Source: Gemmatimonadota bacterium | GTDB taxonomy: Bacteria > Latescibacterota > UBA2968 | Direction: 5' to 3' | Assembly (NCBI GenBank): GCA_026705765.1 | Contig: JAPPAB010000158.1 | Location: 3,050 to 67,049, forward strand | DNA length: 64,000 nt | Part shown: positions 1 to 48,238 of the stretch, piece by piece | How positions within the stretch are numbered: position 1 is the stretch's first letter | Layout of the letters: each line of letters begins with the position of its first letter | Program-made: the position numbers and the translations under genes | The notes under the pieces: generated by a model | Seen by the model: only the letters and a program-made list of their open reading frames with translations | Databases searched by the model: none | What the model was told of the DNA's origin: nothing

Positions 1-333
1 CCGTCGCTTGTGCAGTTTACCAGTGCGTATAAGCTGAAAAAGATTAAAAAGCAAAAAGGGCATCGGGTGGTGGAGATTGAGGAGGAGCGCGAGGTACATT
101 ACCGAATCTGGTTTCACATTGAGGTGTTGTCGCTGGTGATTGACGGCAAGGGATCGGGGAGTGCGGAATGGGAGATTGATATCGACCGCGGGCTTGTGCT
201 TTCCCACAATATGAAGATCGGTCTGGGATTGCCGCAGGTGCGTATGGCAGGTGATCCAAAGCCTATTGATGATATCAAAGCAGAGATTGAATTGGTTTTT
301 AGCCGGAAGCTGGATAAGCTGGAGAAAGAATAA
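1..333 (+). CDS. hypothetical protein, C-terminal fragment (frame open to window edge)
   Basis: Frame 1 has no stop from base 1 (track ORF 10..333). Stop TAA 331-333 overlaps ATG 333-335 of the next gene (TAATG). No motif recognised. Confidence 0.5.
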   Translation, partial: PSLVQFTSAYKLKKIKKQKGHRVVEIEEEREVHYRIWFHIEVLSLVIDGKGSGSAEWEIDIDRGLVLSHNMKIGLGLPQVRMAGDPKPIDDIKAEIELVFSRKLDKLEKE

Positions 334-2288
334 TGAGCCTGGCTTTTGATACATCTGTTGCAATTCAGTCAGCCGACCGGGGCGTGACCGCCCGCGCTGT
401 ATTGCTGGGCCTGGTGCTGGTCTGTGCAGAGGTCGCGGTGATTACATTTTCCGAGCCGGTGGCGCGGTCGTCTTCTATGAACGTGAGCCACTTTCCCGTG
501 GGATTTTTCATGTGGTTTGTGGTTGTGATCCTGGGTTTGAACCCGCTTTTGAAATGGATTTATCCGGGGTATATGCTCTCGCGTTCAGAGCTTTTGACTG
601 TTGCTGCGATGGGATTGATTGGGGCACATATTCCCGGTAGCGGTCTTTTGGGATTTTTCCTGGGGGTGCTGGCTGCGCCTTATTATTTTGCCTCGCCAGA
701 GAATCAATGGGAAGCTCTGTTGCATCCGACTATCCCTTCGTGGTTGGCGCCTTTGAATGAGCGCGGTGCCATGCAGGGTTTTTTTGAGGGGTTGCCCTCA
801 GGCTCAGTGCCGTGGTCTGCCTGGATTATGCCGTTGTTCTGGTGGATGTGTTTGATTGGGGTGCTGACTTTTGTGCTGCTGTGTATGGCGGTGATGCTGA
901 GAAAGCAATGGGTGGAAAACGAGCGTCTGGTCTATCCCCTGATTTCACCGGTGTCCGATCTGATTGAAGATGACGGCGTGGGGGGAATATTGTCAGGTCT
1001 GATGCGGAATAAGCTGTTCTGGTTCGGATTTGTTTTGGGTTTTGGACTTTTGGCATGGAATTTTGTGTGGTATTTTTGGGATGCCTGGCCCCGTATCAAC
1101 TTTTTTGGACGCAAAGATCTGGTATTTATCGATGGCTTCCCCGCGATGACCAACCGGGTCAATTTGTACATTATCGGGTTTGGCTATTTTGCCAATCTGG
1201 ATGTGTTGTTTAGCCTCTGGTTTTTTTATCTGGTATATTGGGCGCAGAATGGGATTTTCAATCGCATTGGTCTGGATTTGGGTCCGGGAACGGGTGCGGC
1301 GAGTGCATGGGAAAATCTGGGGGCATTGTTCGCGCTGGTCTGGTGGGCATTGTGGACGGCGCGGCATCATCTGCGGGATGTGGTGAGAAAAGCGATCAAT
1401 GCGAAGTACGGGGTGGATGATTCGGGTGAAATGGTGTCTTATCGGACAGCCGTAGTGGGGGTGATTCTGGGGTCGGGATTTTGTTTGCTATGGCTGTGTA
1501 TGGCCGGGATTGAGTGGTACATCGGCGTTCTGTTTTTGCTCGCGCTATACGGGGTGTGTTTGGGGCTGGCAAAGGTGGTGTGTGAGAGTGGTTTGCTCTA
1601 TCTGGCATGGGGAGTGAGTCCGCAGACATTGGTGACCAATTTTTTGGGGTCGGCATCTATGGCGGGGGGGACGATTACGACACTGGCATTTACAGAGGGA
1701 CTGTTTTTTCACGGCAAGGGTATGTTTATGTCGTCTCTGGCCAATAGTGCGAAGATGGGTGATCTGGCCGGTACCGATCAGAGGCGGCTGGGCAAGAGCA
1801 TGGGGTTGGCGCTGTTGGTGGGGATTCCTCTGTGTATTTATTTGAGCCTGGGATGGGGCTATGAACAGGGCGCGTATAATTTTGGAGGGTTTCCCTTTCG
1901 CTATGGTCGCGATAGCGTGTTTGCGCGGGCTGTGAGCATGATGCAAAGCCCTCAGGGGCCAGCGTCTTCTCGTCTGATGTTTTTTGGGGTTGGTGTGGTG
2001 GGCATGACGGTGTTGACGGTGTTGCGATACCGCTTGCCCTGGTGGCCGTTGCATCCGATTGGATTTGCCGTGGGTGGAAGCGGTCGCGCTACGAAAGCGA
2101 CGTGGTCTATTTTTATTGCCTGGGCGTGTAAGTTTTTGATTGTGAAAATTGGTGGTGTGACGCTTTATCGCAGGTATCGTCCGTTGTTTACGGGATTGCT
2201 TTCGGGGTATTCGCTGGGGGTTGGGGTGTCGTTTGCGGTGGATGTGTTGTGGTTTATGGGCCGAGGACACTGGATTCATTTGTATTGA
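333..2288 (+). CDS. large polytopic membrane protein, uncharacterised family (paralog 1)
   Basis: 651-aa ORF with many hydrophobic helices. Colinear paralog at 9907..11853, sharing blocks FFEGLP..VPW..W..PLFWW, R.QWV..ERLVYPL, RYR.P.WPLHPIG and a C-terminal G.GH..H. No characterised transporter motif recognised. Confidence 0.85.
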   Translation: MSLAFDTSVAIQSADRGVTARAVLLGLVLVCAEVAVITFSEPVARSSSMNVSHFPVGFFMWFVVVILGLNPLLKWIYPGYMLSRSELLTVAAMGLIGAHIPGSGLLGFFLGVLAAPYYFASPENQWEALLHPTIPSWLAPLNERGAMQGFFEGLPSGSVPWSAWIMPLFWWMCLIGVLTFVLLCMAVMLRKQWVENERLVYPLISPVSDLIEDDGVGGILSGLMRNKLFWFGFVLGFGLLAWNFVWYFWDAWPRINFFGRKDLVFIDGFPAMTNRVNLYIIGFGYFANLDVLFSLWFFYLVYWAQNGIFNRIGLDLGPGTGAASAWENLGALFALVWWALWTARHHLRDVVRKAINAKYGVDDSGEMVSYRTAVVGVILGSGFCLLWLCMAGIEWYIGVLFLLALYGVCLGLAKVVCESGLLYLAWGVSPQTLVTNFLGSASMAGGTITTLAFTEGLFFHGKGMFMSSLANSAKMGDLAGTDQRRLGKSMGLALLVGIPLCIYLSLGWGYEQGAYNFGGFPFRYGRDSVFARAVSMMQSPQGPASSRLMFFGVGVVGMTVLTVLRYRLPWWPLHPIGFAVGGSGRATKATWSIFIAWACKFLIVKIGGVTLYRRYRPLFTGLLSGYSLGVGVSFAVDVLWFMGRGHWIHLY

Positions 2289-2294
2289 GGAGGA

Positions 2295-3785
2295 GTGATT
2301 TTGAAAAGATTTGGTTATGGGCTAATGGTGTGGATGCTATTTGTCTCAAATGTTGAGCCGTCACAGATGGACTCGGTGCTGGTCGATATTATCAAGGGCA
2401 ATTATTACGGGGCAATGGTGCGGTGCGAGGATGTGATCGCAGTTGATTCAACAGCGGCGGATGCGTACCGATTTTTGGGATGGCTTCAGATTGTGACGAG
2501 GCAGGGCGATTTGCAAGAGGTAGGGGAGAATTTGCGGCGGGCCATTCATCTGAAAATTGAGGATGCAGGAGCGCATAACGATCTCGGCGTTGTGTATTTT
2601 TTTCAGCGTAACTACAGCCCGGCGATTGAAGCATTCAGGCAGGCGGTCGCGCTAAGACCCGATGAGACAATGTTTTACCGAAATCTGGGTTTTGTAGCTG
2701 AATTGGCGGGGGCGTATTCCGATGCGGAAGAGGCGTTTCAGGCTGTTTTGGAGCGAGACCCGACGGACGATCTGGCGGTTTACGGATATGGGCTTGCGCT
2801 GGTCAGGCAAGCGCGTTATGACGAGGCGCTGGAGGCATTTCAAAAGGCCGTCCACATGTTTTCGGATCGCAAAGAAGCGCATTTAGAAATTGGACAACTC
2901 ATGATGATGCACGGCAAGTATGCGTCTGCTATATCTGCGTACAAACGGGCGACAAAAATCGATTTTGAAGATCCCAAAGGTCATTATGGACTGGCACAGG
3001 CTTATCAGGTATCGGGCGATTCGCTATCGGCGCGGCATGCGTGGGAGTCGTTTAAGTTTTTTGACGAGCGCCATCGGCATGCGGTTCGAGACCAGTATGT
3101 GTTGCCCGCGCGATTTGATAAGGTAGCCGATTTGCTGGATTTCGGAGACAGGTTTGTGAGATTGGGGCATCACGATAAGGCTATAGGGGTTTATCAGCAA
3201 GCGGTCGCTCTGGTGGAAGATCCAGATTTGCCGTGGCGGTTTAGTCCGGAGGTTCCCGTGGTGTATCTGGCTCTGGGACAGTCCTATCAGGCGTTGGGGG
3301 ATGTAGAGCGAGCGCGGCGGTCTTATGATGCGGCTTTTGCGCTGGGTGAAGGGGGCCTGGTATCTGACGAGGCTTTGAGGCACAGGACAGATATGTTTTT
3401 GTGTGCCGATGGGTTGTCGCGCGATGTGGTGGAGGGATATGAGCGGATTGTGGCTATGGATCCGATTGCCTTTGCCGCGTTCTACATTTACGATCAGATT
3501 AGCCAGGCACAGGCGAAGACGGGAGATCTGAATAAGTGTATTTCGACCTATGAGACCAGAGCAGATCAGGTTGCGTATTCTGCGGGGTTGCTGGTGCGAT
3601 TGGGGGTGGCACATGCGGTGGCGGGAGATATGGACGCGGCAAAGGCGTTGTACGATCAGGTGATTGGGGGGGCGGAAGATCCGCGCGAGTTGTATCTCCA
3701 GTTGTCGGTTCTCTATGGTCGGGCGGGGCGGAAAGCGGAGGCAGAGGCAATGGCGGCAAAAGCATCCGCAGATGTACGCAGATAA
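2295..3785 (+). CDS. exported tetratricopeptide (TPR) repeat protein
   Basis: GTG start just downstream of GGAGGAG. N-terminal hydrophobic signal-like segment and repeated TPR-type helix pairs (A..Y..LG......G....A...F..A..L.P). The last codons (SADVRR) and the TAA stop lie inside decamer repeat A. Confidence 0.8.
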   Translation: MILKRFGYGLMVWMLFVSNVEPSQMDSVLVDIIKGNYYGAMVRCEDVIAVDSTAADAYRFLGWLQIVTRQGDLQEVGENLRRAIHLKIEDAGAHNDLGVVYFFQRNYSPAIEAFRQAVALRPDETMFYRNLGFVAELAGAYSDAEEAFQAVLERDPTDDLAVYGYGLALVRQARYDEALEAFQKAVHMFSDRKEAHLEIGQLMMMHGKYASAISAYKRATKIDFEDPKGHYGLAQAYQVSGDSLSARHAWESFKFFDERHRHAVRDQYVLPARFDKVADLLDFGDRFVRLGHHDKAIGVYQQAVALVEDPDLPWRFSPEVPVVYLALGQSYQALGDVERARRSYDAAFALGEGGLVSDEALRHRTDMFLCADGLSRDVVEGYERIVAMDPIAFAAFYIYDQISQAQAKTGDLNKCISTYETRADQVAYSAGLLVRLGVAHAVAGDMDAAKALYDQVIGGAEDPRELYLQLSVLYGRAGRKAEAEAMAAKASADVRR

Positions 3786-3794
3786 ACGCAGATG
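3764..3794 (+). repeat. decamer array A: ATCC + 3 x GCAGATnnnn
   Basis: GCAGAT occurs at 3768, 3778 and 3788 (exact 10-nt phasing) after an ATCC leader. It overlaps the 3' end and stop codon of the TPR gene. Confidence 0.85.
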
Positions 3795-3819
3795 AGTGTG
3801 ACTGTACTTTCACAATTGG

Positions 3820-5430
3820 ATGGGAGTATCAGTGATTAGAGTTATTGGCATTCTTTTTTTGTTTTTATGTTCGAGTTCTGTTGCCGCAGAGCAATTTGTG
3901 GAGGTTGCAGAAGCGTCTGGTATATCGTTTGTGCATCGGACCGGTGCGAGGGGGAATTGGCATTATTTGGAGACTATGGGGTCGGGCTGCGCTGTGTTTG
4001 ATGTGGATGGGGATGGGGATTTGGATCTGTATTTTGTCAATGGAGAACACGGGCAGGCGGGCGGCGAGAACGCGCTTTATCGAAACGATGGTGGATTTCG
4101 TTTTTCGGCTGTTCCAGGCGCGCTGGGTGTGGGGTATGGTATGGGGTGTACGGTTGGGGATTATGACAATGATGGCGATCTCGATCTTTATACGACGGGT
4201 TATGATGCCAATGTGCTGTATCAAAATGATGGGCGTGGTGGTTTTGCGGAAAAGAAGGCGGGGGTGGCGGGCGGTGGGTGGTCTGCTGGCGCCACCTTTT
4301 TTGATGCGGATGGGGATGGCGACCTGGATTTGTATGTGGTGCGCTATTTGACGTATGATGTGGAAACCGATCCGGATTGTGAGCGGGTGGGCGTTCGCAC
4401 GTATTGCGATCCGGGCTATTTTGAGGGGGCGCCGGATTTGCTTTATCGGAATGAGGGGAATGGAATATTTACGGATGTTTCCTTTGAGGCGGGTGTGGCG
4501 GATTCTTCGGGCAAAGGGCTTGGGGTGGTGAGTCTGGATTACGATGGGGATGGGGATACCGATCTCTATGTGGCGAATGATACGACGCCAAATTTTTTGT
4601 ATCGCAATGTGGGGGGACGGTTTGAGAATGTAGGGATAGAGGCGGGTGTGGCGTTTAATGCGCAGGGCCGGACACAGGCGGGGATGGGGGTCGATGTGGG
4701 AGATGTAGATGGAGACGGGCGATCAGATATTTTTGTGACGAATTTTTCCTACGAGACCAATGCGATTTATCAGCGTGCGGGGGGCGGATTTTTCATGGAG
4801 GGAAGTGTGTCAACCGGAATTGCCGGGGTGTCTTTGCTGCCTCTGGGATTTGGCACTCATTTTTTTGATTATGACAACGATGGCGATCTGGATCTGTTTG
4901 TGGCAAATGGGCATATTTTCCCAAATGTAAAGGCGTTTTCCAGGGCGGAGTCCTATTTACAAGCGGATCAAATATTTCGCAATGTGGATGGGCGATTTGA
5001 GGTGGTTAATGCGGGCGTTGAAACGCCGGGGGTGAGTCGTGGGTCGGCGATTGGCGATCTGGATGAGGATGGCGATCTGGATCTGGTGGTGTTGCATTCG
5101 GGGCAAAGGGCGCGGGTGTTTCGCAATGAATTTGAGAACTCGGGACACTGGATCGTTGTAAAGCTCGTGGGAGGTATGGAGGGAGCGGAAAGCGGGTTTT
5201 CAAATAGGGACGGGATTGGGGCGGTGGTGCATGTAAGCGCGGGGGGAAAGATCCAGGTGCGTGAGGTTCGGAGTCAGTCGAGCTATTTGTCGGCGAGCGA
5301 TTTGCGGCTTCATTTTGGGCTGGGCAATGCGCGTCGCGTGGATCGAATTGAGGTGCGCTGGGTGAGTGGCCGCGTGCAGGTGTTGGAAGATGTTGAGGTG
5401 GATCGCGTTGTGGTTGTGGAAGAGAATTGA
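3820..5430 (+). CDS. CRTAC1-family protein (FG-GAP/VCBS repeats + C-terminal UnbV/ASPIC domain), secreted
   Basis: Signal peptide (ILFLFLCSSSVAAEQ). Ca-loop repeats DVDGDGDLDLY, DYDNDGDLDLY, DADGDGDLDLY, DYDGDGDTDLY, DVDGDGRSDIF, DYDNDGDLDLF and DLDEDGDLDLV. C-terminal block NRDGIGAVV.V...G.IQVREVRSQSSYLSASDLRLHFGLG....VDRIEVRW.SG. Confidence 0.9.
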   Translation: MGVSVIRVIGILFLFLCSSSVAAEQFVEVAEASGISFVHRTGARGNWHYLETMGSGCAVFDVDGDGDLDLYFVNGEHGQAGGENALYRNDGGFRFSAVPGALGVGYGMGCTVGDYDNDGDLDLYTTGYDANVLYQNDGRGGFAEKKAGVAGGGWSAGATFFDADGDGDLDLYVVRYLTYDVETDPDCERVGVRTYCDPGYFEGAPDLLYRNEGNGIFTDVSFEAGVADSSGKGLGVVSLDYDGDGDTDLYVANDTTPNFLYRNVGGRFENVGIEAGVAFNAQGRTQAGMGVDVGDVDGDGRSDIFVTNFSYETNAIYQRAGGGFFMEGSVSTGIAGVSLLPLGFGTHFFDYDNDGDLDLFVANGHIFPNVKAFSRAESYLQADQIFRNVDGRFEVVNAGVETPGVSRGSAIGDLDEDGDLDLVVLHSGQRARVFRNEFENSGHWIVVKLVGGMEGAESGFSNRDGIGAVVHVSAGGKIQVREVRSQSSYLSASDLRLHFGLGNARRVDRIEVRWVSGRVQVLEDVEVDRVVVVEEN

Positions 5431-5451
5431 TGTATTTAGAAGGAGGCTACT

Positions 5452-6756
5452 ATGGGTGATGCACGGAGAGATGCGCGGTTGTTGTGGGAACTGGATGTGG
5501 AAGGTGTTGGCGGGCAGATGGTTGTGGCGGATGTGAATGGGGACGGAAAGCAGGAGTTTTTGTTGCGGCAGAGTCCGGGGCAGTTGAAGTCGGATCTCTA
5601 TATTGAGCGGGGATGGAATACGGATGAGGAACGGCGTTTGTTCTGTATTACGGCGATTGATCAGGAGGGCAATCAGCTGTGGCAAGTGGGCGAACCGCAT
5701 CGAAGGGCAGATCCTTACTGCTCGCATGGAGGCAATGATTTTCTTACTGCTGATGTGGATGGCGATGGGAAGGCGGAGGTGATTTCGATTGTGTGGGATG
5801 TGCTGACGGTTTTTGATGGGGAAACGGGCGAGGTACAGGCGCAGAAGAAGTTGCCGGCAGATAATTTTTCTCAGGTGAAGGCCGGGAATTTGAAGGGTGA
5901 TCCGACGCGGCAGCAACTGGTGGTGAAGGTCAATGATGGTGCTTATCCGCCTTATGAATACGGCAATCCGACTTATGTTCTGGATAGCGATTTGTCGGAG
6001 TTGTGGATGACGCCGCATTATCACGGGGCAGGGCATGCGCCGGTGTTGATCGATGTGGATGGCGATGGGTGTGACGAGATGTTGATCGGGTATAATCTGG
6101 TGGATAGCGATGGGACTTTGTTGTGGTCGATTCCAGTGGAAAATGCCACGGCGGAGCATGCGGACAATATCAATCCGACGGATCTCGATGGGGATGGGGA
6201 GATTGAGATTGCGTATTCGGGTAGTAGAGATTTTTTTGTGGCGAATACGCAGGGCGAGGTGATCTGGAGACGCCCGCACGAGCATTCGCAGAATACGACG
6301 GTGGGGCGTTTTCGCAGTGATATAGATGGACAGACGATGATTTTGAATGAAAAGTGGATTGGGATGACGTGTTATACGCCCGATGGACAGGCATTGTGGC
6401 AAAAATCCGGTGTGGGATACGCGCAACACGCTGTGCGCGGCTGGCGGGATGACGGGCTGGATCTGGTGATTTATGCCCCGGCTTTAAAGAGGCAACAAGA
6501 GGATGTGCCTTATGATAGCGAGCCGGAAGATACACATCTTTACTGGCCGTTTCTGATGGATGGGGATGGCAACCGGGTGATGGAATTTCCCTTTCGAGAG
6601 GATTTCAGACAGCCCAGACAGCGCATCCGGGGATTTCGTGCGTACGATTACGGGATTGGATATGGCGCGATGGTGTTGGATATGGATGGGGACGGAAGAG
6701 ATGAGGTGCTGATTTACGACCGGCAGAAGATTCTGGCATTTGGCGCGCCAGCATAG
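5452..6756 (+). CDS. FG-GAP-like calcium-loop beta-propeller protein without signal peptide
   Basis: AGGAGG upstream of the ATG. The N-terminus MGDARRDARLLWELD has no hydrophobic segment. Blade loops ADVNGDGKQEF, ADVDGDGKAEV, IDVDGDGCDEM, TDLDGDGEIEI and LDMDGDGRDEV alternate with G..LW strands. Confidence 0.8.
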   Translation: MGDARRDARLLWELDVEGVGGQMVVADVNGDGKQEFLLRQSPGQLKSDLYIERGWNTDEERRLFCITAIDQEGNQLWQVGEPHRRADPYCSHGGNDFLTADVDGDGKAEVISIVWDVLTVFDGETGEVQAQKKLPADNFSQVKAGNLKGDPTRQQLVVKVNDGAYPPYEYGNPTYVLDSDLSELWMTPHYHGAGHAPVLIDVDGDGCDEMLIGYNLVDSDGTLLWSIPVENATAEHADNINPTDLDGDGEIEIAYSGSRDFFVANTQGEVIWRRPHEHSQNTTVGRFRSDIDGQTMILNEKWIGMTCYTPDGQALWQKSGVGYAQHAVRGWRDDGLDLVIYAPALKRQQEDVPYDSEPEDTHLYWPFLMDGDGNRVMEFPFREDFRQPRQRIRGFRAYDYGIGYGAMVLDMDGDGRDEVLIYDRQKILAFGAPA

Positions 6757-6771
6757 CACAGGAGGTGTGCT

Positions 6772-7734
6772 GTGAGGAATCAGTGGATATTGTATCTTCT
6801 GTTTTTTTCTCTGCTTCATTGTGCAGGGAACACCGGTCTGCTGGATTCCGATTATTCAATTGTTAAAGGCCGCATTGCGTTTGTGGGACCGGGGGATTTC
6901 AGGACATTCAAAATTTTTGTGATGCGTCCCGATGGCAAGGGGTTGATGAGGCTTACGAGAGAGCAGGGAGGCTATACCAATCCCTCCTGGTCTCCGAATG
7001 CGCGACGCATTGTATTTGCTTCAAACCGGGATGCCGTGGGAAATTTCGATATTTATATTTTTAATCTGGAGGATGGAGACATACAGAAGGTGGTCGATTT
7101 GCCCGGTCCCGATCTCGGTCCAGTCTGGTCTCCCGATGGTGGAAAGATTGCTTTTCAGGCGCAGAAGGATAATAGGGATAGATGGGATATCTACACGGTC
7201 AACCTCGATGGGACGGGATTGCAAAATCTGACAAATTCTCCCAGTAGTGATGAAGCTCCGGACTGGTCACCCGATGGACGCAGGATTGCTTTTCAATCGC
7301 GTCAGGGGAATAATATCGACATTTTTCTCATGGATGCAGATGGTTCTAATCGGGTCAGGCTTACGGATTTCAATGGTGTTCAGAATATTCATCCGGCCTG
7401 GTCGCCTGATGGAACGCGTATTGCATTTGCGTCAAATCGGCACCAACCACAGGTGCGGAATCAGTTCCCTGAGTGCGAGATTTATACTATGGGTTCCGAT
7501 GGGGCTATGGTGCGACGGTTGACCCTGGATGCGAGTTCTACAGTGGCTTTTTTTTCTCCTACCTGGTCGCCCGACGGTCAGAGGATTGCTTTTGAAGTGC
7601 GGCGAACCCACGAGAGACAGGGGGGCCTGGAACACAGGTTGATGATGATAAATGCCGATGGCACGGATTTGCATGAAGTTTCTGTGGATATGGAGGTCTC
7701 TGCGCCTCGCTGGTCGCCGAGGCAAACCGAGTAA
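6772..7734 (+). CDS. PD40 / TolB-like beta-propeller lipoprotein
   Basis: GTG start after AGGAGG. Lipoprotein-like signal (LLFFSLLHC). Five WSP(D/N)G..I(A/V)F repeats, each followed by .DI(Y/F).....DG, typical of WD40-like PD40 repeats. Confidence 0.85.
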   Translation: MRNQWILYLLFFSLLHCAGNTGLLDSDYSIVKGRIAFVGPGDFRTFKIFVMRPDGKGLMRLTREQGGYTNPSWSPNARRIVFASNRDAVGNFDIYIFNLEDGDIQKVVDLPGPDLGPVWSPDGGKIAFQAQKDNRDRWDIYTVNLDGTGLQNLTNSPSSDEAPDWSPDGRRIAFQSRQGNNIDIFLMDADGSNRVRLTDFNGVQNIHPAWSPDGTRIAFASNRHQPQVRNQFPECEIYTMGSDGAMVRRLTLDASSTVAFFSPTWSPDGQRIAFEVRRTHERQGGLEHRLMMINADGTDLHEVSVDMEVSAPRWSPRQTE

Positions 7735-7773
7735 CGGAGATGATGTTGTGGAGGTCATTTAAGGAGGTGTCTT

Positions 7774-11853: not shown

Positions 11854-11927
11854 GTTCGGGTTTATTGATGGCGGGATAAGAAATATCGCGTCGATGTAAT
11901 TTCCAATTTTTTAACCGGGAGGAAGAC

Positions 11928-13916: not shown

Positions 13917-16900
13917 TATTCGTCGCACGATCGGGTTGTTGATGGTGTTGAGTTTTGGATGCGGAGAAGAGGAGATGGCTACGCCATCCCCGGATTATGT
14001 CTCCGCATTCTATACGGGTGTGTTCGCGCTGGAGGTGGGTGCTTTTGATCGGGCGGATGCCAGTTTGAGCCGTGCTCTTACAATGGAACCCGATGAGCCG
14101 GCTGCGTGGGCAAATCGCGGGGTGTTGCGGTTGCGGCGGGGGGATTATGACGGGGCTGCAAAAGACCTGGAGACAGCGCGTTCACTGATGCCCGAGAGCG
14201 GCGCTATCGCGATGCTGCAGGGATTGGTTGAGCGGAGCAGAGGGCAATCCGACGCTGCTATCGCGTTTTTCGAGAAAGCGGCGCAACAGGGGCTTGTGAA
14301 GGCGCGGTACGCGCTGATGAAGGAGGTGGAGCGACGGGGGGGAGCAGGGAGTGAGGAAGAGGTCTGGACACAGTTGGAAGTCCTGATCAGGCAGGTGCCG
14401 GACAATCCCGCGCTGTGGATCGAGCGGGCGAGGCAGGCGGGCAAACGGGGGGATGAAAAGGCTCTGCGCGCATCGGTGGAGAAGTTGGGCGAGTGGTCGG
14501 AGGGGTGGCCGGATGCGGCGCGGGTGCAGTTGCGCAGTTTGCAGGGCGAGACGGAAGGGGGGAGTGAGGTAGCTTTGCAAGCGATGTTTTTGCACAATGT
14601 GTTGTTGCGCGATCCGATGTATCGGCGCGCGCTGGATGCACTGGTTGTGCCGGCTGAACGCCTGGGAGATCCCATAGTTAAATTTTTGAAGTTCAGTATG
14701 CCCCAGGCTATGCCGGCGCCTGCGGATTTGAACATGCGCTTTGAACCCGAACCTGTTGCGGGTTTGGAGGGAAGTGATTGGCAGGTGCTCAAGCCTTTCT
14801 GGTCGGAAGAAGAAGTAGAGGTGGTTGCGGCAAGTGCTTCTCAGGTACGGGGGACGGAGGGGATTGCGGTTGATTCCCCAGGGGTGTTGGGGATGCTGGC
14901 GGTTGATTGGGATAACGATTTTGCGTTAGATCTCGCGCTGGTGGGGGCAGAGGGTTTTCGGTTGTTCCGACGTACTGAGGATGGCGGGATTGAGGGTGTG
15001 ACTGATTCCATCGGGTTGGACGAAGAAGAGATAGTTGGCGTGTGGGGAGCGGATGTAGAGATGGATGGGGATGTCGATTTCGTTTTGGGGCGTTCTACAG
15101 GACCGCCTCTCGTGTTGCAAAACAATGGAGATGGTTCATTTGTGGCGCGAGAACTTTTCGGTAATGTAGATGGACTGAGGGGATTTGTGTGGGTAGATTG
15201 CGATGGAGATGGCGATCCCGATGCGGCGATGCTGGATCGAGAAGGGCAATTGATTGAGGCGGTTAACGAGCGGGCGGGTGTATTTACGCCGGGGGCGAAG
15301 AAGGCGGTGGATGGCGTTGCGTTAAGCGCGGGAGATCTGGATCGAGACGGGCGTTTAGAGCGCGTGGTTGTAGATGGGGATGGCACTGTGATGGCTGTGT
15401 CGCAAGGGGAGATAAGTACGCTGATTCAGGCTGATTCAACCGCTGGTCCTGCTCCGCTTCTCATAGCGGATCTGGATAATAATGGCGCGCTGGATCTGGT
15501 TTTTGACAAGCGTGCCTATCTGGCGTCGGAAGAGGCTTACCACGCTCTGGACCTGAAAGCGCGCGTGACTGGTGTGGCGGATTTGACGGGTGATGGTCGG
15601 CTCGATTTGCTGGGTGTTTCGGATACAGGTGAGGCGCTGCAACTGGTGAATGGGGGCGATTTGGCGTATCACTGGCAGGCGGTTCGCCCCGTGGGCGGTA
15701 GGGCTTCTGGCGATGGGCGGATCAATGCACTGGGTTTGGGTGCAGAAGTGGAGTTGCGTTCGGGTGCGTTCTATCAGAAGCAAGTGGTGACGGATCCGGT
15801 GGTGCATTTTGGGTTGGGGACTTATACGGGGACAGATCTCGTGAGGATTGTGTGGCCCAATGGGATGCCTCAGGTGGAGTTCGATCTGGAGGTGGATCAG
15901 GTGGTGGGTGCCGTACAGCGGTTGAAGGGGTCGTGCCCCTGGGTGTTTGCGCACAATGGGTTGGAGATGGGGTTTGTAACGGATTTTCTGTGGCGGTCGC
16001 CTCTGGGGATGCGGATCAATGCTCAGGTGGTTGCGGGTATTGCTCAGACGGAGGATTGGGTGAAGATCAGAGGCGATCAGCTAATTGCGCGAAATGAGGT
16101 GTACGATATTCGGATTACGGGTGAACTCTGGGAGACGCATTTTGTCGATTGGGTGTCTCTCGTCGCAGTTGATCATCCCGAGGGGACGTCGGTTTTTGTG
16201 GATGAGCGTTTTGCCCGGGGTGCGCCATCGCTCGAAATTTACGCGACTACGCAGCCCCGATCCTTTGCTATTGTGAAAGATGATCGGGGGCGCGATATGA
16301 CCGATAGAGTGCGGGTGCGGGACGGACAGTATGTGGATACTTTTGGGCGGGGTATTTATCAAGGGGTGACGCGAGAACACTATGTAGAGGTGGAGATGGG
16401 AGACGAGGTGCCCAGAGAAGGACCTTTGTGGCTGGTCGGTCAGGGATGGATTCATCCGACGGATAGTTCGATCAATGTGGCGCTGGGGCAGGGTAGCCAT
16501 CCGCCACCCCAGGGCCTTTCTCTGCATGTATTTGGTGGGACAGATTGGCGCGTCGTGTATCCTGATCTGGGTTTTCCTGCCGGAAAGCGCAAGACAGTGT
16601 TGATTGATTTGAGCGGCGTTTTTCCGCGGGATGTTTCCCGAAAATTTAGATTGCAGACTAATTTGGAGATTTATTGGGATCGTTTGGCGTGGGCTGTGCC
16701 GCTTGAAGACAGTGTGATGACGGTTCAATCTGTGCCTTTGGCGAGCGCACAGTTGCGTTATCGCGGGTTTTCGCAGGTGACGGAGGCAGATGCGAGTTCG
16801 CCCGAGGTGCCGGATTACCACGCGCTTGACGGAACTTCGCAAATGTGGCGAGATCTCGTGGGGTATTATACGCGATATGGAGATGTAGAGCCATTGCTGG

Positions 16901-17223
16901 CACAGGTCGATGACCGATATGCGATTGTGAATGCTGGAGATGAGATCCAGTTGCTGTTTGCGGCTTTGCCAGATCCTGGGGAGCAGGTGCGGGATTTTGT
17001 TTTGAAAGGCGATGGGTGGGTTAAGGATGGCGATTATAATACGGCTTTTTCAACGACGGTGTTGCCCTTGCCAGCGCATGGGGTTTTGTCTTATGATCGC
17101 GCGCCTGAAACACTTGAAGATGATCCGGTGTTTAAGCGCCATGCAGAGGACTGGCAGCGGTTTCACACGCGGTATGTGACGCCCGATTGGTTTGATCGGG
17201 CGCTGAGGAATGACAGGCCATGA
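13909..17223 (+). CDS. large multidomain lipoprotein: TPR-like region + FG-GAP/VCBS repeats + UnbV/ASPIC-like block + unknown C-terminal domain
   Basis: ATG overlaps the upstream stop (ATGCTTGA). Lipoprotein-like signal LLMVLSFGC. Ca loops VEMDGDVDFVL, VDCDGDGDPDA, GDLDRDGRLE, ADLDNNGALDLV and ADLTGDGRLDLL. UnbV-like block GDGRINALGLGAEVELRSG..YQKQVV....HFGLG.....LVRIVWPNG. The last ~450 aa carry no recognisable motif. Confidence 0.8.
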   Translation: MLDIRRTIGLLMVLSFGCGEEEMATPSPDYVSAFYTGVFALEVGAFDRADASLSRALTMEPDEPAAWANRGVLRLRRGDYDGAAKDLETARSLMPESGAIAMLQGLVERSRGQSDAAIAFFEKAAQQGLVKARYALMKEVERRGGAGSEEEVWTQLEVLIRQVPDNPALWIERARQAGKRGDEKALRASVEKLGEWSEGWPDAARVQLRSLQGETEGGSEVALQAMFLHNVLLRDPMYRRALDALVVPAERLGDPIVKFLKFSMPQAMPAPADLNMRFEPEPVAGLEGSDWQVLKPFWSEEEVEVVAASASQVRGTEGIAVDSPGVLGMLAVDWDNDFALDLALVGAEGFRLFRRTEDGGIEGVTDSIGLDEEEIVGVWGADVEMDGDVDFVLGRSTGPPLVLQNNGDGSFVARELFGNVDGLRGFVWVDCDGDGDPDAAMLDREGQLIEAVNERAGVFTPGAKKAVDGVALSAGDLDRDGRLERVVVDGDGTVMAVSQGEISTLIQADSTAGPAPLLIADLDNNGALDLVFDKRAYLASEEAYHALDLKARVTGVADLTGDGRLDLLGVSDTGEALQLVNGGDLAYHWQAVRPVGGRASGDGRINALGLGAEVELRSGAFYQKQVVTDPVVHFGLGTYTGTDLVRIVWPNGMPQVEFDLEVDQVVGAVQRLKGSCPWVFAHNGLEMGFVTDFLWRSPLGMRINAQVVAGIAQTEDWVKIRGDQLIARNEVYDIRITGELWETHFVDWVSLVAVDHPEGTSVFVDERFARGAPSLEIYATTQPRSFAIVKDDRGRDMTDRVRVRDGQYVDTFGRGIYQGVTREHYVEVEMGDEVPREGPLWLVGQGWIHPTDSSINVALGQGSHPPPQGLSLHVFGGTDWRVVYPDLGFPAGKRKTVLIDLSGVFPRDVSRKFRLQTNLEIYWDRLAWAVPLEDSVMTVQSVPLASAQLRYRGFSQVTEADASSPEVPDYHALDGTSQMWRDLVGYYTRYGDVEPLLAQVDDRYAIVNAGDEIQLLFAALPDPGEQVRDFVLKGDGWVKDGDYNTAFSTTVLPLPAHGVLSYDRAPETLEDDPVFKRHAEDWQRFHTRYVTPDWFDRALRNDRP

Positions 17224-19010
17224 AAGACAGCGGGATAGAGGAGAGACATCCCAATCGCGTTGTGCGGATTCTGGTGGTGCTGTTTTTTGGGCTATTGCTG
17301 GTGGTGTTGGGTATGATGAAGTGGGGAGGATGGCAGGTGGGGGAAATGAGTGGCACTGGCAGTGAACGATATGGATTCTATCTGAAGGAAGTCGGAAAAC
17401 AGGTGGGGATCGATTTTGTACACGAAGCGCCTGGGCTGGACGCAAAGCTGGATCATATTATGCCGATTATCGCGTCGATGGGCGCGGCGGTTTCGGTGGT
17501 GGATTACGACCGGGATGGTTGGCAGGATTTGTATGTGACCAGTAGTCGGAAGGGCAGTTTGAATCGGCTGTATCGCAATTTGGGAGGGATGGGTTTTGAA
17601 GATGTGGCTGCGGCAATGGGCGTGGCGGATGTGAATCACGAGGGTGTGAGTATGGGATCTGTGTGGGGGGATTACGACAACGATGGGTTCGAAGATTTGT
17701 TTTTGTATAAATGGGGCCGCCCCGAGTTGTTTCGCAATCGGGAAGGGAAGGTGTTTGAGCGCGTGACGGAAACAGCGGGTTTGCCCAGGTGGATCAATGC
17801 AGGGAGTGCGATTTGGGTAGATTACGACTGCGATGGGTATCTGGATATTTTTGTGGCGGGTTATTGGTCCGAGTCCCTGAATTTGTGGGATTTGGAGACC
17901 ACGCGGATGATGCCGGAGAGTTTTGAATACGCGAATAATGGGGGGCGGAAGTATTTGTTGAGAAACTCGGGTGATGGGACATTTGAAGATGTGACGATGA
18001 AGGTGGGAATCACGAGCAGGAGGTGGACACTGGCGGTAGGGGCGGCGGATTTGAACGGGTCGGGGTTTCCCGATCTGTTTTTGTCCAATGATTACGGAAT
18101 TTCCGAGTTGTATGTGAACGAGGGCGGAAAGCGGTTTGTCGAGATGGGTGAGCAAGTGGGGGTGGGGCGTCAGCCAAAGAGCGGGATGAATGCCGCGTTT
18201 GGCGATGTGCTGAATCGGGGAGATCTGGCAATTTACGAGACCAATATTTCTCAGGCTGGCGTTCTCATTCAGGGGAATAATTTGTGGGTGCCCGTGGGAG
18301 GCGAGACCTTGCGGTTTGAGAATTTGGCCGGGGCGATGGGCGTGGATCTGGGCGGGTGGAGTTTTGGCGCGCAGTTTGGGGATTTGAACAACGATGGGGC
18401 GCTGGATCTCGTTTTGACCAATGGGTATGTTTCGGCAGATGGCAATGGAAGTTATTGGTATGATTTTTCTCAGGTGGCGGGCGGGCATAGCGCGATTATC
18501 TCTGATGCGAAAAATTGGCCGCCGATGCGAGGCAGGAGTTTGGCAGGCCATCAGACCAAGTGCGTTTGGGTAAACGACGGGATGGGGCAATTTGTCGAGG
18601 TGGCACAGGCAGTGGGGGTTCGGGATCGATTCGATGGGCGGGCTGTGGCTCTGGTAGATCTGTGGAACCGGGGGGTGCTGGATGTGGTGGTGGCCAATCA
18701 GCGGGGCCCGCTTTTGTTGTACCGCAACACAGTGCGGACAGAGGCAAACTGGATTGGGTTCGAGCTGGTTGGGCAGCGGAGCAATCGCAGTGCGATTGGG
18801 GCGCGGGTGCAGGTGTTCTGGAATGAGGAGGTGCAGGTGCAGGAGGTATTGGGCGGTAGCGGTTATGCTGCGCAGAATCAACGTCCACTGCATTTTGGTT
18901 TAGGCGCGGGTGCAGTGGTTGATAGCGTTGCCATACGCTGGCCATCGGGACAGGTACAGATGTTTTACGCGCCCGATGTGCGGCGGGTGCATCGGATTGT
19001 AGAGAATTGA
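17220..19010 (+). CDS. CRTAC1-family protein (FG-GAP/VCBS + UnbV/ASPIC), N-terminally membrane-anchored
   Basis: ATGA overlap with the upstream stop. Anchor VVRILVVLFFGLLLVVLGMM. Loops VDYDRDGWQDLYV, GDYDNDGFEDLFL, VDYDCDGYLDIFV, ADLNGSGFPDLFL and GDLNNDGALDLVL. C-terminal block NRSAIGARVQVFW...VQVQEVLGGSGYAAQNQRPLHFGLG....VDSVAIRWPSG. Confidence 0.9.
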   Translation: MKDSGIEERHPNRVVRILVVLFFGLLLVVLGMMKWGGWQVGEMSGTGSERYGFYLKEVGKQVGIDFVHEAPGLDAKLDHIMPIIASMGAAVSVVDYDRDGWQDLYVTSSRKGSLNRLYRNLGGMGFEDVAAAMGVADVNHEGVSMGSVWGDYDNDGFEDLFLYKWGRPELFRNREGKVFERVTETAGLPRWINAGSAIWVDYDCDGYLDIFVAGYWSESLNLWDLETTRMMPESFEYANNGGRKYLLRNSGDGTFEDVTMKVGITSRRWTLAVGAADLNGSGFPDLFLSNDYGISELYVNEGGKRFVEMGEQVGVGRQPKSGMNAAFGDVLNRGDLAIYETNISQAGVLIQGNNLWVPVGGETLRFENLAGAMGVDLGGWSFGAQFGDLNNDGALDLVLTNGYVSADGNGSYWYDFSQVAGGHSAIISDAKNWPPMRGRSLAGHQTKCVWVNDGMGQFVEVAQAVGVRDRFDGRAVALVDLWNRGVLDVVVANQRGPLLLYRNTVRTEANWIGFELVGQRSNRSAIGARVQVFWNEEVQVQEVLGGSGYAAQNQRPLHFGLGAGAVVDSVAIRWPSGQVQMFYAPDVRRVHRIVEN

Positions 19011-19011
19011 A

Positions 19012-19833
19012 ATGGATCGAGCGAGTGGGTTCTGGAAGTCGGTCTGGACGGGGTTGCAAAGCCGCTATCTGTCGCCGGCATTGATTACTTGCATTCTGGT
19101 TGGGGGACAGGTTACTTTTGGCTTTTTGGAGAGTTTGGGGCAGACGCTGACAGCTATCCTGAGTAGCGTACTGACGGAATTTGCACTGGGGCGGTTGACG
19201 TGGGGTGTGTGGCCGGGGCTGGTCAGTGCGTATATTACCGGGATTAGTGTGGGTATTTTGATCCGCTCGCCTCTGTTTTGGCCTTATGTGTTGTGCAGCG
19301 TGTTGTCTATTGCATCTAAGTATGTGTTGCGATGGCGCGGCAGGCATTTGTGGAATCCATCCAATTTTGGGGTGAGTATTATGCTGTTTCTCGCCCCTGA
19401 AGTGGTGGCGGGGTTGAGTATCCAGTGGGGCAATACCCTGTGGACCATGGTAATCATCTGGATTCTGGGAAGTGCTGCGCTCTGGCGATTGCGGCGGTTT
19501 CATATCTGCGCGGTATATGTTATTTCGTTTTTGGCTTTTGCTTTTATTCGCTGCATGTTTACCGGGCAGGCGTATTTGACGAGCATTGCGCCGATTACAG
19601 GACCGATGTATCAGTTGTTCATTTTTTTTATGATTACAGATCCCAGAACGACTGTGATGACGCGAAAAGGGCAGTGCTTTGTCGCGTTTCTGGTGGCTTT
19701 TGTCGAGATGATTTTGCGCTTGAATGAAGCGATTTACGCACCGTTTTACGCGCTGTTTCTGGTAGGACCTGCGGCGAATGCGTTTGAGATATGGAGGGGA
19801 GAGGCGAAGGAAACGGCTGATGGATATAATTGA
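19012..19833 (+). CDS. integral membrane protein, NqrB/RnfD-like fold (UnbU-like)
   Basis: ATG lies 1 nt after the upstream stop, and there are about 8 hydrophobic helices. Motifs HLWNPSNFG and FFMITDPRTT resemble the NPA-like and FM.TDP motifs of NqrB/RnfD-type proteins. The enediyne-cluster protein UnbU is annotated in this family (from memory, unverified). Confidence 0.6.
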   Translation: MDRASGFWKSVWTGLQSRYLSPALITCILVGGQVTFGFLESLGQTLTAILSSVLTEFALGRLTWGVWPGLVSAYITGISVGILIRSPLFWPYVLCSVLSIASKYVLRWRGRHLWNPSNFGVSIMLFLAPEVVAGLSIQWGNTLWTMVIIWILGSAALWRLRRFHICAVYVISFLAFAFIRCMFTGQAYLTSIAPITGPMYQLFIFFMITDPRTTVMTRKGQCFVAFLVAFVEMILRLNEAIYAPFYALFLVGPAANAFEIWRGEAKETADGYN

Positions 19834-20551
19834 TTTTGTGGTGTTGGGAGTTGGCGGTTTTTTGATTGGCGTGATGCGCGCGGGATTTGGCGGTGGTATT
19901 GGTGTGGTGGCTGTGCCAGTTCTCGCGCTCGCAGTGCCCGCAAAGTCCGCACTGGGGCTTGTTTTGCCACTTTCTCTGACAACCGATGTGATCAGTGCGC
20001 GGTACTACTGGGGACATTGGGTTGGAGACCATGTCAAGGCGTTGATGCCCGGTATGGTACTGGGTATTTTGATTGGTGCGGGTATTCTGGATATTGTGCC
20101 AGAGGTCTGGTTTCGACGCCTGTTAGGCGCTCTGGCATGTATTTTTGCTGTGTTACAGACCCTGAGGGATCGGGTACTGGTGAATGTACGACCGCCGGGA
20201 CCGTGGATGCGTTTTGGCGTTGGTGTGACTTTGGGAGTGGTTTCCACATTGGTTTCTGCGGGGGGCGTGATTTTGATGTTGTATTTGTTGCCACAGGGCC
20301 TGGTCGGGCGCACATTTGTGGGTACTGCGTGGATTTTTGGCATTGTTTTAAATCTTTTGAAGTTGACGCCTTATGTTTTTTTGGGATTGATCAATTTCCA
20401 GAGTTTGGTGATGGATACGTGGATGTTGCCGGCTTTGTTCCTGGGGGCAGCGGTCGGTTTGTTTTTGAATAGACGGTTATCCCCAGTGTGGTTTAACCGC
20501 AGTGTGCTGGTTCTGGTGCTGGGAATTGGACTGAAATTGATGTTGTCATAA
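19820..20551 (+). CDS. TauE/SafE (TSUP, DUF81) family anion exporter-like membrane protein
   Basis: Gly-rich helices (GVGGFLIGVMRAGFGGGIGVVAVPVL) and 7-8 TM segments. Internal ATG 19820 is preferred because the track start 19778 would add an RRRKR-rich leader overlapping the upstream gene by 56 nt. Confidence 0.8.
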   Translation: MDIIDFVVLGVGGFLIGVMRAGFGGGIGVVAVPVLALAVPAKSALGLVLPLSLTTDVISARYYWGHWVGDHVKALMPGMVLGILIGAGILDIVPEVWFRRLLGALACIFAVLQTLRDRVLVNVRPPGPWMRFGVGVTLGVVSTLVSAGGVILMLYLLPQGLVGRTFVGTAWIFGIVLNLLKLTPYVFLGLINFQSLVMDTWMLPALFLGAAVGLFLNRRLSPVWFNRSVLVLVLGIGLKLMLS

Positions 20552-20556: not shown

Positions 20557-20646
20557 AAGCGAATAGACGAATAGACGAATGGAATACACACTGATTTTGG
20601 GAGGATGGGCGGGGTTCGTAGATTCGTAGATTCGCTGATTCGTCCG
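20557..20646 (+). repeat. composite octamer-repeat element R1 (3 x CGAATnnn / conserved core / 4 x TTCGnnnn)
   Basis: CGAAT occurs at 20560, 20568 and 20576, and TTCG at 20615, 20623, 20631 and 20639 (8-nt phasing). The core ACTGATTTTGGGAGGATGGGCGGGGTTCGT is nearly identical to the core of R2 (61610-61638). Confidence 0.8.
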
Positions 20647-20655
20647 AGGTGTTGT

Positions 20656-21198: not shown

Positions 21199-21208
21199 CG
21201 GGGTCGAT

Positions 21209-21883: not shown

Positions 21884-21888
21884 ATGAA

Positions 21889-22785: not shown

Positions 22786-22788
22786 TAT

Positions 22789-23829: not shown

Positions 23830-23837
23830 CTGTGGAT

Positions 23838-44076: not shown

Positions 44077-44087
44077 TTTTTCACCAT

Positions 44088-48201: not shown

Positions 48202-48204
48202 AGT

Positions 48205-48238
48205 ATTGAGTAATTTTACTCAATGTATTGAGTAAAAT
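48205..48238. promoter_or_regulatory. palindromic operator-like site abutting the ATPase start codon
   Basis: ATTGAGTAA-TT-TTACTCAAT (48205-48224, perfect 9-bp arms) plus a third half-site ATTGAGTAAAAT (48227-48238). It begins 4 nt upstream of the ATG at 48201, where an RBS would be expected. Confidence 0.5.

Follow-up and report, generated by a model that had tools for sequence, protein, structure and literature searches.

A candidate composite uptake locus of Latescibacterota with a polyketide-synthase-independent cassette of the enediyne E4/E5 type

Described relatives and gene content

The enediyne polyketide synthase (PKS) cassette is described as E10/E/E5/E4/E3 (PMC4480864). Its E3, E4 and E5 are conserved genes of unknown function (PMC9992847), which are needed together with the enediyne PKS (PKSE) and the thioesterase for biosynthesis of the enediyne core (PMC10760148, PMC9992847). 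The E4/UnbV-E5/UnbU pair was known before only from this warhead cassette. Here we describe its occurrence outside enediyne pathways, in a 64,000-nucleotide stretch of a Latescibacterota genome (contig JAPPAB010000158.1, positions 3,050 to 67,049 of the forward strand), called the window below. The pair belongs to an array of 13 + strand open reading frames (ORFs), which also encodes two DUF6785 membrane proteins, TPR proteins and several propellers. We suggest that the array is a lineage-specific composite uptake/processing locus with a captured, undescribed, PKS-independent cassette of the E4/E5 type, and give this reading a probability of about 0.6.

Other parts of the array resemble the OPT/Yellow Stripe transporters, the Rnf/Na+-NQR complexes, human CRTAC1, the PL11 lyases YesW and YesX, and the ResA/TlpA/CcmG thioredoxins. 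A preliminary description of this DNA had held that none of the components has an assigned role. Most are indeed without published function; however, the OPT fold, the E4/E5 homologues and the ResA/TlpA-like redoxin place parts of the array in described families. All 13 ORFs of that description were recovered in the ORF list with their coordinates. The genes are as follows.

10..333, + strand: last 107 codons of the gene for a conserved 313-aa protein, truncated at the left end of the window; overlaps Mem1 (TAATG)
333..2288, + strand: Mem1, DUF6785+DUF6784 inner-membrane protein, predicted from its model as a probable secondary permease (Pfam E 1e-111 and 9e-21)
2295..3785, + strand: TPR1, exported TPR protein of 496 aa (TPR families; signal-like N-terminus)
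3820..5430, + strand: CRTAC_A, exported FG-GAP propeller with UnbV_ASPIC, CRTAC1-type, not of the E4 subtype (Pfam)
5452..6756, + strand: Prop1, signal-less FG-GAP propeller of 434 aa, PL11-lyase-related (partial RGL11_C, 48.9 bits)
6772..7734, + strand: PD40 (TolB-C-terminal-like) propeller with a signal/lipoprotein-like N-terminus (PD40 E 2e-45)
7774..9906, + strand: exported TPR protein fused to a ResA/TlpA-like thioredoxin-fold domain (AhpC-TSA/Redoxin; CGWC)
9907..11853, + strand: Mem2, second DUF6785+DUF6784 protein, predicted OPT-fold permease (Pfam E 4e-111)
11928..13916, + strand: LamGProp, signal-less DUF1080/LamG-like domain with a PL11-like FG-GAP propeller (Pfam)
13909..17223, + strand: cassette gene 1, lipoprotein-like TPR+FG-GAP+UnbV protein of 1104 aa (Pfam)
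17220..19010, + strand: cassette gene 2, CRTAC_B, membrane-anchored FG-GAP+UnbV protein, homologue of enediyne E4 (UnbV, SgcE4)
19012..19833, + strand: cassette gene 3, UnbU, RnfD/NqrB-fold membrane protein of 273 aa, homologue of enediyne E5 (SgcE5)
19778..20551, + strand: TauE/SafE-family anion-exporter-like membrane protein (TauE E 5.5e-31; start at 19778 or 19820)
20605..25229, + strand: continuation of the run with CDP-alcohol phosphatidyltransferase, GT2, aldo/keto reductase, GFO/IDH/MocA oxidoreductase and amidase

Nearly all domain calls of the preliminary description are backed by Pfam. DUF6785+DUF6784 is found twice, FG-GAP_3+UnbV_ASPIC three times and RGL11_C/FG-GAP propellers twice, together with TPR, PD40, TPR+AhpC/redoxin and TauE families and an RnfD-like protein. 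The junctions quoted there are present as well: TAATG at 331-335, TAAATG at 9904-9909, ATGCTTGA at 13909-13916, ATGA at 17220-17223 and the UnbU/TauE overlap. Its picture of the set as associated with the envelope also holds up, with repeat proteins that are exported, membrane proteins and propellers that appear to be cytoplasmic; export signals or membrane anchors are predicted on the TPR, CRTAC, PD40 and redoxin proteins.

The E4/E5-type cassette

The truly conserved unit of the array is a three-gene cassette at 13909-19833, which the preliminary description did not single out. Its first gene has a C-terminal region of ~440 aa without a family match. Three distant UnbU homologues lie in the order of a 1167-1214-aa TPR+FG-GAP+UnbV protein, a ~600-aa FG-GAP+UnbV protein and a ~290-aa UnbU, joined by 4-nt overlaps, and no DUF6785 or PKS gene was found near these three. 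The wider sample comprises 84 UnbU loci, 80 from a genome scan and four from contig look-ups. They are mostly from Acidobacteriota and also from Planctomycetota, Verrucomicrobiota, Armatimonadota, Latescibacterota, Methylomirabilota and one alphaproteobacterium; cultured carriers of the cassette are Singulisphaera sp. PoT (Planctomycetota) and Silvibacterium bohemicum S15.

The order of the three genes recurs in roughly 70-80% of the 84 loci. In 70 loci UnbU is directly preceded by an UnbV ORF of ~598 aa. A second UnbV ORF is present further upstream in 57 loci and has at least 900 aa in 54 of them; the counterparts of cassette gene 1, two genes upstream of UnbU, have 1100-1400 aa. UnbU is directly followed by an extra UnbV ORF in 39 loci. 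Most of the loci that lack the expected UnbV ORF look like ORF-calling artefacts. Most cassette junctions in the sample are 4-nt overlaps; stop and start codons that overlap in this way point to translational coupling within the cassette. It occurs without DUF6785 in every other phylum sampled, and TauE follows UnbU in 3/84 loci, all of them close relatives of the window. UnbU homologues from different phyla share 60-69% identity (mean column identity 72%), and the family collapses in a 50%-identity representative library (230 representatives at E<=1e-30).

Elsewhere the cassette has neighbours that are not seen here. A ~487-aa NapH/CcoG-like polyferredoxin membrane protein (CTFCLDCVHAC) and a ~207-aa protein are encoded upstream in 41 of the 84 loci. 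Loci with the polyferredoxin upstream include L097, L098, L107, L108, L113 and L160, from Acidobacteriota, Verrucomicrobiota and Methylomirabilota. A ~148-aa protein is also found upstream in 34 loci, and YtkA-like Pfam matches were obtained for 5 of the 70 flanking proteins scanned, in the size class of this protein. A Trp-halogenase-like flavoprotein often follows the cassette. None of these partners (polyferredoxin, ~207-aa, YtkA-like or Trp-halogenase-like) was found in the window.

UnbU homologues carry the JGI labels "enediyne biosynthesis protein E5" or RnfD/NqrB. The window UnbU, compared with plasmids by tblastn, matches Streptomyces genes annotated as "enediyne biosynthesis protein UnbU" at 27-31% identity, one of which lies on plasmid SGLP1 of S. 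globisporus C-1027. There, two DUF1702 genes are followed by those of a CRTAC1-family protein, an RnfD-like protein and a type I PKS, and we read this set as the SgcE3/E4/E5/E part of the enediyne cassette. CRTAC_B is 29% identical over 540 aa (E 2e-44) to the CRTAC1-family protein (SgcE4), and UnbU is 29% identical (E 8e-17) to the RnfD-like protein (SgcE5). The motifs HxWNPSNFG and M(I/V)TDP are common to the window and SGLP1 proteins. In both cases the gene of the CRTAC1-family protein is followed at once by that of the RnfD-like membrane protein, with 1 nt between them in the window and 2 nt in SGLP1. Unlike the enediyne cassette, the window carries an extra 1100-aa TPR-fused UnbV paralogue upstream. 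Its cassette type is found in Acidobacteriota, the Planctomycetes-Verrucomicrobia-Chlamydiae (PVC) phyla and Latescibacterota, not in actinomycetes, and its UnbU is far more conserved.

With both SGLP1 DUF1702 queries no homologue of DUF1702 (E3/UnbL) was found in the window or in the 84 UnbU loci. A phmmer search of six-frame ORFs with the SgcE PKS gave no match in the window and a match in one of the 84 loci (L174). No thioesterase domain was found among the window proteins scanned, with no search aimed at E10. Hence, with DUF1702 absent and the PKS match confined to a single locus, we suggest that the E4/E5-type cassette is PKS-independent. Membership in an enediyne cluster was rejected, as PKSE and E3 were not found in the window alongside the E4/E5 homologues. 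We found no literature that ties bacterial CRTAC1-type proteins to enediyne E4/E5, and none on UnbV and UnbU together with enediynes; the UnbV/ASPIC domain is mentioned in passing only. The pair is routinely mislabelled as "enediyne biosynthesis" or "RnfD"; the three-gene cassette is frequent in phyla of soils and sediments.

An E3/E4/E5-like set outside actinomycetes is seen in the Serratia proteamaculans plasmid NZ_MT039191.1 (L181). It encodes a KS-domain protein, a flavin adenine dinucleotide-dependent (FAD) oxidoreductase, a glycosyltransferase, DUF1702, LuxR, a VCBS-repeat protein and an RnfD-like protein (UnbU), with a TauE/SafE gene a few genes downstream.

UnbU passes the Pfam threshold of NQR2_RnfD_RnfE (31.7 bits against a cut-off of 27.7), and its AlphaFold2 model superposes on RnfD and NqrB (Foldseek, template-modelling (TM) score 0.53-0.63, E 1e-5 to 7e-3); urea channels match more weakly. 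A PDB sequence search with the UnbU profile gave no useful match. The differences from Rnf/Na+-NQR are several. The NCBIfam rnfD score of UnbU is 25.7 against a cut-off of 207, the RnfA, B, C, E, G and NqrA, C-F families are absent among the neighbouring window genes, and the partners are periplasmic propellers. The motif [ST]G[AS][ST], in which threonine carries covalent flavin mononucleotide (FMN), was not found in UnbU by a regular-expression search. UnbU was thus rejected as a member of an Rnf/Na+-NQR complex, other subunits and the flavinylation motif being absent.

Three proteins of the array (3820-5430, 13909-17223 and 17220-19010) have FG-GAP followed by UnbV_ASPIC. CRTAC1 (9etn) has the same succession of an FG-GAP Ca-binding propeller and UnbV_ASPIC, and phmmer matches CRTAC_A to the human protein at E 1.5e-20. 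CRTAC1 has a further C-terminal EGF-like domain, whereas the window proteins had no further Pfam match besides FG-GAP and UnbV_ASPIC. The window forms also differ in being lipoproteins or membrane-anchored, in one case TPR-fused, and in their genetic coupling to a membrane protein.

It is possible, though the odds are against it, that the cassette specifies an ancient, strongly conserved, undescribed envelope complex, perhaps one for membrane-linked redox or metal-dependent chemistry in the periplasm. If so, enediyne E4/E5, and perhaps eukaryotic CRTAC1, would be offshoots of the cassette system, and its function would explain two long-standing unknown enediyne genes. The cultured carriers open the cassette to genetics and give a new route to the role of E4/E5 and of the CRTAC1 fold.

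Membrane proteins, propellers and duplicated parts

The AlphaFold2 model of Mem1, made with 28 homologues, has a predicted local distance difference test score (pLDDT) of 88.9 and a predicted TM score (pTM) of 0.89. Foldseek aligns it over its full length (~685 columns) to PDB entries 7wst and 7wsr at E 1e-9 and TM 0.60-0.67; all other PDB folds have E>0.09. Both entries are barley Yellow Stripe 1 (HvYS1), an OPT-family transporter. The likeness to OPT/YSL proteins (TC 2.A.67) thus extends over the full-length fold of the Mem proteins, which have ~650 aa and many transmembrane helices. The difference is that the Mem proteins have no detectable sequence similarity to them, with 13-14% identity in the structural alignment. 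NCBIfam has no family for Mem1 or Mem2, and no literature was found on DUF6785 or DUF6784. DUF6785/DUF6784 gains herewith a working annotation as a predicted OPT-fold permease family.

At least 592 DUF6785 copies were confirmed by tblastn in species-representative genomes, with many per Latescibacterota genome. The family also occurs in metagenome-assembled genomes of Gemmatimonadota and Planctomycetota, and Mem1 orthologues reach 88-99% identity in the species-representative genomes. DUF6785 is among the most expanded membrane-protein families of Latescibacterota, which bears on the feeding of this uncultured phylum. At loci that are not orthologous to the array its neighbours are enzymes (gamma-glutamyl transpeptidase, phosphotriesterase-family, GFO/IDH/MocA, class-III aminotransferase, sulfatase, PhyH), transport proteins (MFS_2, FadL/PorV-like outer-membrane proteins) and peptidase M28. 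From these mixed catabolic and transport neighbours, DUF6785 reads as a substrate permease that has been recruited to many catabolic operons. Known OPT-family substrates are peptides, glutathione and metal chelates, not sugars, and the gamma-glutamyl transpeptidase and peptidase-like contexts of DUF6785 fit the peptide and glutathione substrates of OPT members.

The conserved linkage of DUF6785 to FG-GAP, UnbV and TPR genes that the preliminary description expected was largely absent from the tabulated neighbourhoods. FG-GAP is the immediate downstream neighbour in 4/50 cases, and TPR is the immediate neighbour in 1/50 downstream and 1/58 upstream. Within 10 kb of DUF6785, four of the 75 loci have an UnbV or FG-GAP-rich gene; three more have a propeller homologue.

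Two further observations concern the family. Three tandem DUF6785 genes occupy 7996-13991 of a marine Latescibacteria contig (L001/L002), flanked by gamma-glutamyl transpeptidase, sulfatase, aminotransferase and amidohydrolase genes, a context that hints at gamma-glutamyl-peptide or glutathione-type substrates for some DUF6785 paralogues. Ten of the 50 downstream DUF6785 neighbours encode ~1,500-aa FtsX-like permease-domain proteins (L050, L051, L053, L054, L060, L062, L067, L068, L076, L079); some of these have PA or peptidase-M28 domains and some lie between two DUF6785 genes.

The array had been described as two diverged copies of one module with a duplicated parts list. Membrane proteins, CRTAC1-type proteins and propellers do occur twice; the TPR proteins, however, are dissimilar, and PD40, redoxin, UnbU and TauE are present in single copy. 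Mem1 and Mem2 are 42% identical, whereas unlinked family members elsewhere reach 45-46% with Mem1, and a neighbour-joining tree of 114 family members places Mem1 and Mem2 in separate clades. Judged from these sequences, Mem2 is an old paralogue of Mem1 and not a recent copy, and the two are not each other's closest relatives. CRTAC_A and CRTAC_B are 32% identical. SgcE4 matches CRTAC_B far better (1.9e-36 against 1.2e-8 for CRTAC_A), hence these are different subtypes. Prop1 and LamGProp are 26% identical, and no similarity beyond the repeat itself was found between the TPR proteins of the two modules. Descent of both modules from one ancestor is therefore not what we see, as Mem1 and Mem2 are no closer than unlinked paralogues, the CRTAC subtypes differ and the TPR proteins are unrelated.

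What remains of the module idea is a DUF6785 gene beside a signal-less propeller in the nearest outgroups of both clades. LamGProp directly follows Mem2 in the orthologues with a long enough flank. With the signal-less propeller family as bait, no conserved DUF6785 neighbour was found outside the clade of the window. The gene content also varies among relatives that are 88-99% identical. The TPR-redoxin gene is missing from L004, L006, L008 and L011, and no PD40 gene was detected in L005 and L013. In L016 Mem1-TPR1-CRTAC_A leads straight to TPR-FG-GAP-UnbV/CRTAC_B, and Prop1, PD40, redoxin, Mem2 and LamGProp are missing.

Prop1 and LamGProp leave no room for an upstream start and have no N-terminal hydrophobic segment, in agreement with the earlier view of them as apparently cytoplasmic; the start of Prop1 is fixed by an upstream stop and a ribosome-binding site. 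Short stretches of Prop1 match YesX, YesW and PL11 (E 1e-8 to 3e-7). Coverage of RGL11_C is ~130 of 490 model positions in Prop1 and ~215 of 490 in LamGProp. The likeness to PL11 YesW/YesX thus consists of an FG-GAP-type multi-bladed propeller with partial RGL11_C. Known PL11 enzymes are secreted; the window propellers, unlike them, have no signal peptide and align over 55-120 residues only in PDB matches. The LamG call is only partly borne out: the N-terminal domain of LamGProp is a sub-threshold match to 3keto-disac_hyd/DUF1080 (25.8 bits against a cut-off of 26.8). NCBIfam has no family for the propellers or TauE, and the CRTAC-types gave one sub-threshold match.

The redoxin has the CxxC noted before, as CGWC at residues 605-608 (WCGWC 604-608), and a signal-like N-terminus. 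It shares with ResA/TlpA/CcmG the thioredoxin fold, CxxC and predicted export. Its ResA model score of 87.8 bits is below the cut-off, and with NCBIfam scores below the equivalog cut-offs no specific orthology is claimed. The Pfam matches of TPR1 include TPR_CcmH_CycH at 62.9 bits. The PD40 protein was rejected as TolB, with a TIGR02800 score of 180 bits against a cut-off of 343 that covers only model positions 154-418. It has a faint match to hydrazine-synthase alpha (31 bits against a cut-off of 800), which may be coincidence. In some non-anammox taxa, homologues of hydrazine-synthase subunits are reported to lie on either side of CRTAC1-family FG-GAP genes (PMC12758564, 2025).

Organisation of the locus and rival readings

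The 13 ORFs are spaced by -56 to +74 nt, and a GGAGG-type ribosome-binding site precedes most of the starts. The limits 1-20551 of the preliminary description are arbitrary, as the run extends past both ends. On the left, ORF 10-333 is the last third of the 313-aa protein severed by the window edge; on the right, the tight co-directional run goes on to 25229. In the 99% identical relative L004 the genes before Mem1 on the same strand (4691-10001) are LacI, PhyH, a cytochrome protein and the 313-aa protein. The cytochrome protein is a 739-aa multihaem cytochrome c-HEAT-TPR protein. The 313-aa protein (full ORF L004 9060-10001) gave no match in Pfam and NCBIfam scans, and its gene precedes Mem1 in nearly all closest orthologous loci. 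The upstream genes in L016 are TonB-dependent-receptor-like and FadL/PorV-like.

In 75 other loci, mostly from Latescibacterota, neighbouring genes share their direction in 70% of pairs and are separated by a median of 39 nt, and GC skew over the array region (1-24 kb, + strand genes) is +0.25 to +0.43. As co-direction and short gaps are common in the lineage and the skew is strong, tight co-directional packing argues only weakly for one system. Where a genome has a strong strand bias, such packing by itself does not mark the limits of a system. GC skew is still positive (+0.11 to +0.26) at 26-47 kb, where - strand genes prevail, thus it is not purely a coding-strand effect; it is ~0 beyond 48 kb of the window. 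Promoter- and terminator-like sites in the array show no excess over shuffled sequence and are almost absent from its intergenic gaps, and no riboswitch or other Rfam element was found in the array.

We suggest that the composite locus has three layers. Layer 1 would be formed by Mem1 and Mem2, two old paralogues predicted as OPT/Yellow-Stripe-fold permeases, each with FG-GAP propeller proteins; its partners would be the exported CRTAC1-type and TPR proteins and the signal-less PL11-like propellers. Layer 2 would be the conserved cassette of TPR-FG-GAP-UnbV lipoprotein, E4-type protein and E5-type UnbU. Layer 3 would comprise the PD40 propeller, the TPR-thioredoxin protein and TauE as dispensable accessories. 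The cassette proteins probably assemble into one complex at the periplasmic side of the inner membrane, where UnbU would serve two Ca-binding propellers as their membrane partner. Outside the cytoplasm, the exported Ca-binding propeller and TPR proteins may bind a substrate or process it. Its small product would be taken in by the OPT-fold permeases, and the signal-less propellers with the downstream oxidoreductases or amidase might act on it in the cytoplasm. An uptake role fits the TonB-dependent-receptor-like and FadL/PorV-like genes upstream in L016. The locus is probably substrate-induced by a LacI-type regulator, as such a gene stands at its head in the near-identical L004. From the observed folds, homologies, gene order and conservation we infer the complex, the direction of transport, the substrate and the co-regulation, and most of the uncertainty of the composite reading lies in this functional part.

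Several points weigh against it. The Mem proteins have no OPT sequence match, Pfam at E<=0.01 giving DUF6785 and DUF6784 only, and a PDB sequence search with the profile of 28 DUF6785 homologues gave no match at E<=1. The structural fit of Mem1 to YS1 is moderate (TM 0.6, root-mean-square deviation ~7 A). With no sequence match to OPT or any PDB chain, the label OPT-fold is used rather than OPT-family member: Mem1 and Mem2 are modelled as OPT-fold proteins and are not proven members of the family, the fold being the sole basis. The UnbU model is of moderate confidence (pLDDT 71.6, pTM 0.71). The cytoplasmic place of Prop1 and LamGProp is a reading of their N-termini, and the LacI gene is seen in L004 and not in the window itself. 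Gene calls in the loci of relatives are crude (longest-ORF greedy), which makes the linkage percentages approximate. The whole array is syntenic within the clade of the window (~15 related Latescibacterota species), and this synteny leaves room for lineage-specific functional integration of all its parts. Also, the link of Mem with a (LamG-)propeller recurs in relatives that are 59-64% identical: in L020 a similar gene directly follows the Mem1-like gene, and in L018 (59% identical) a LamGProp-like gene lies one gene downstream.

The last two points also favour a single machine, in which all 13 genes form one integrated trans-envelope system for uptake, processing or surface assembly, descended from a duplicated module of four or five genes. 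The tight packing with overlapping stops and starts and the three part types present twice agree with it too. However, the paralogue distances, the CRTAC subtypes and the unrelated TPR proteins speak against the duplication. The unlinked DUF6785 genes elsewhere, the cassette without DUF6785 in every other sampled phylum, the relatives that drop Mem2, LamGProp, Prop1, PD40 or redoxin, and the tight co-directional runs normal in the lineage speak against integration, and we regard such a machine as very unlikely. A polysaccharide-utilisation locus of a non-Bacteroidota kind, with the propellers as lyases or hydrolases and DUF6785 as importer of oligosaccharides, is quite unlikely. RGL11_C and lambda-carrageenase-propeller similarity, distant propeller homologues near sulfatases, GH116 and GH43, LacI upstream in the relative and GFO/IDH/MocA and aldo/keto reductase downstream would suit it, but the PL11 matches cover Ca-binding repeats only, and the propellers have no signal peptides, whereas PL11 enzymes are generally known as secreted. 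As noted above, the known OPT substrates are not sugars, and DUF6785 often lies beside gamma-glutamyl transpeptidase and peptidase-like genes. No SusC/SusD pair of the Bacteroidota type was found among the window genes, and a TonB-dependent-receptor-like gene was seen upstream in L016 only.

The remaining alternatives concern the cassette. It could be a membrane-associated periplasmic redox complex, possibly metal-dependent, with UnbU as membrane partner and the propellers acting on a hydrophobic or polymeric substrate, fed by the cytochrome and thioredoxin genes of the locus; this specific form is unlikely. It would parallel the oxidative tailoring reportedly attributed to E3/E4/E5 by Gui et al. 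2024 (diiodotetrayne). The modelled RnfD/NqrB fold of UnbU, the NapH/CcoG-like polyferredoxin and ~148-aa YtkA-like-class proteins upstream in 41 and 34 of the 84 loci, the Trp-halogenase-like flavoproteins after the cassette in several loci, the multihaem cytochrome-TPR protein and TPR-CxxC redoxin of the same run in the lineage and the need for E3/E4/E5 in making the enediyne core are in line with it. However, UnbU has no flavinylation motif and no other Rnf/Nqr subunits nearby, and the NapH/MauN match of the ~487-aa protein is 34 bits against a cut-off of 213. Neither the polyferredoxin nor the YtkA-like partner was found in the window, some relatives do without the redoxin, and no cofactor-binding site was identified in the UnbV proteins. 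That the genes mark a cryptic enediyne- or polyyne-like natural-product pathway is extremely improbable. The JGI labels, the real SgcE4/SgcE5 homology and the shared gene order favour such a pathway, but E3 was not found in the window or the 84 loci, the PKS match is limited to L174, and the cassette is spread widely over phyla that are not known to make enediynes. In addition, the 27-31% identity to the Streptomyces proteins against 60-69% among non-PKS UnbU proteins suggests a separate, strongly constrained UnbU orthologous group. We therefore retain the composite locus with a captured cassette as the preferred reading.

The genes at 20605..25229 mark the 3' extent of the run and are not proven members of the locus. 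ORFs 21209-21883 and 21760-22785 overlap by 124 nt in the ORF list, and 22789-23829 and 23562-25229 by 268 nt. In the aldo/keto reductase the Pfam match starts at residue 59 and in the amidase at residue 114, hence the true starts of these overlapping ORFs are probably further 3'.

Elsewhere in the window, a low-GC island (46990-49291, GC 0.40 at 48-50 kb) lies between catabolic operons. It encodes an Mrr-like restriction endonuclease (48395-49291) and an adjoining AAA_14/DUF4143 ATPase (46990-48201), and looks like horizontally acquired or defence-type DNA. A 514-aa ORF without a Pfam match (42556-44100, - strand) is found within an apparent sugar ABC-transporter operon with a periplasmic binding protein, an ATPase and a permease. 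Genes for tRNA-Arg(TCT) and tRNA-His(GTG) lie 15 nt apart at 62574-62741 on the + strand.

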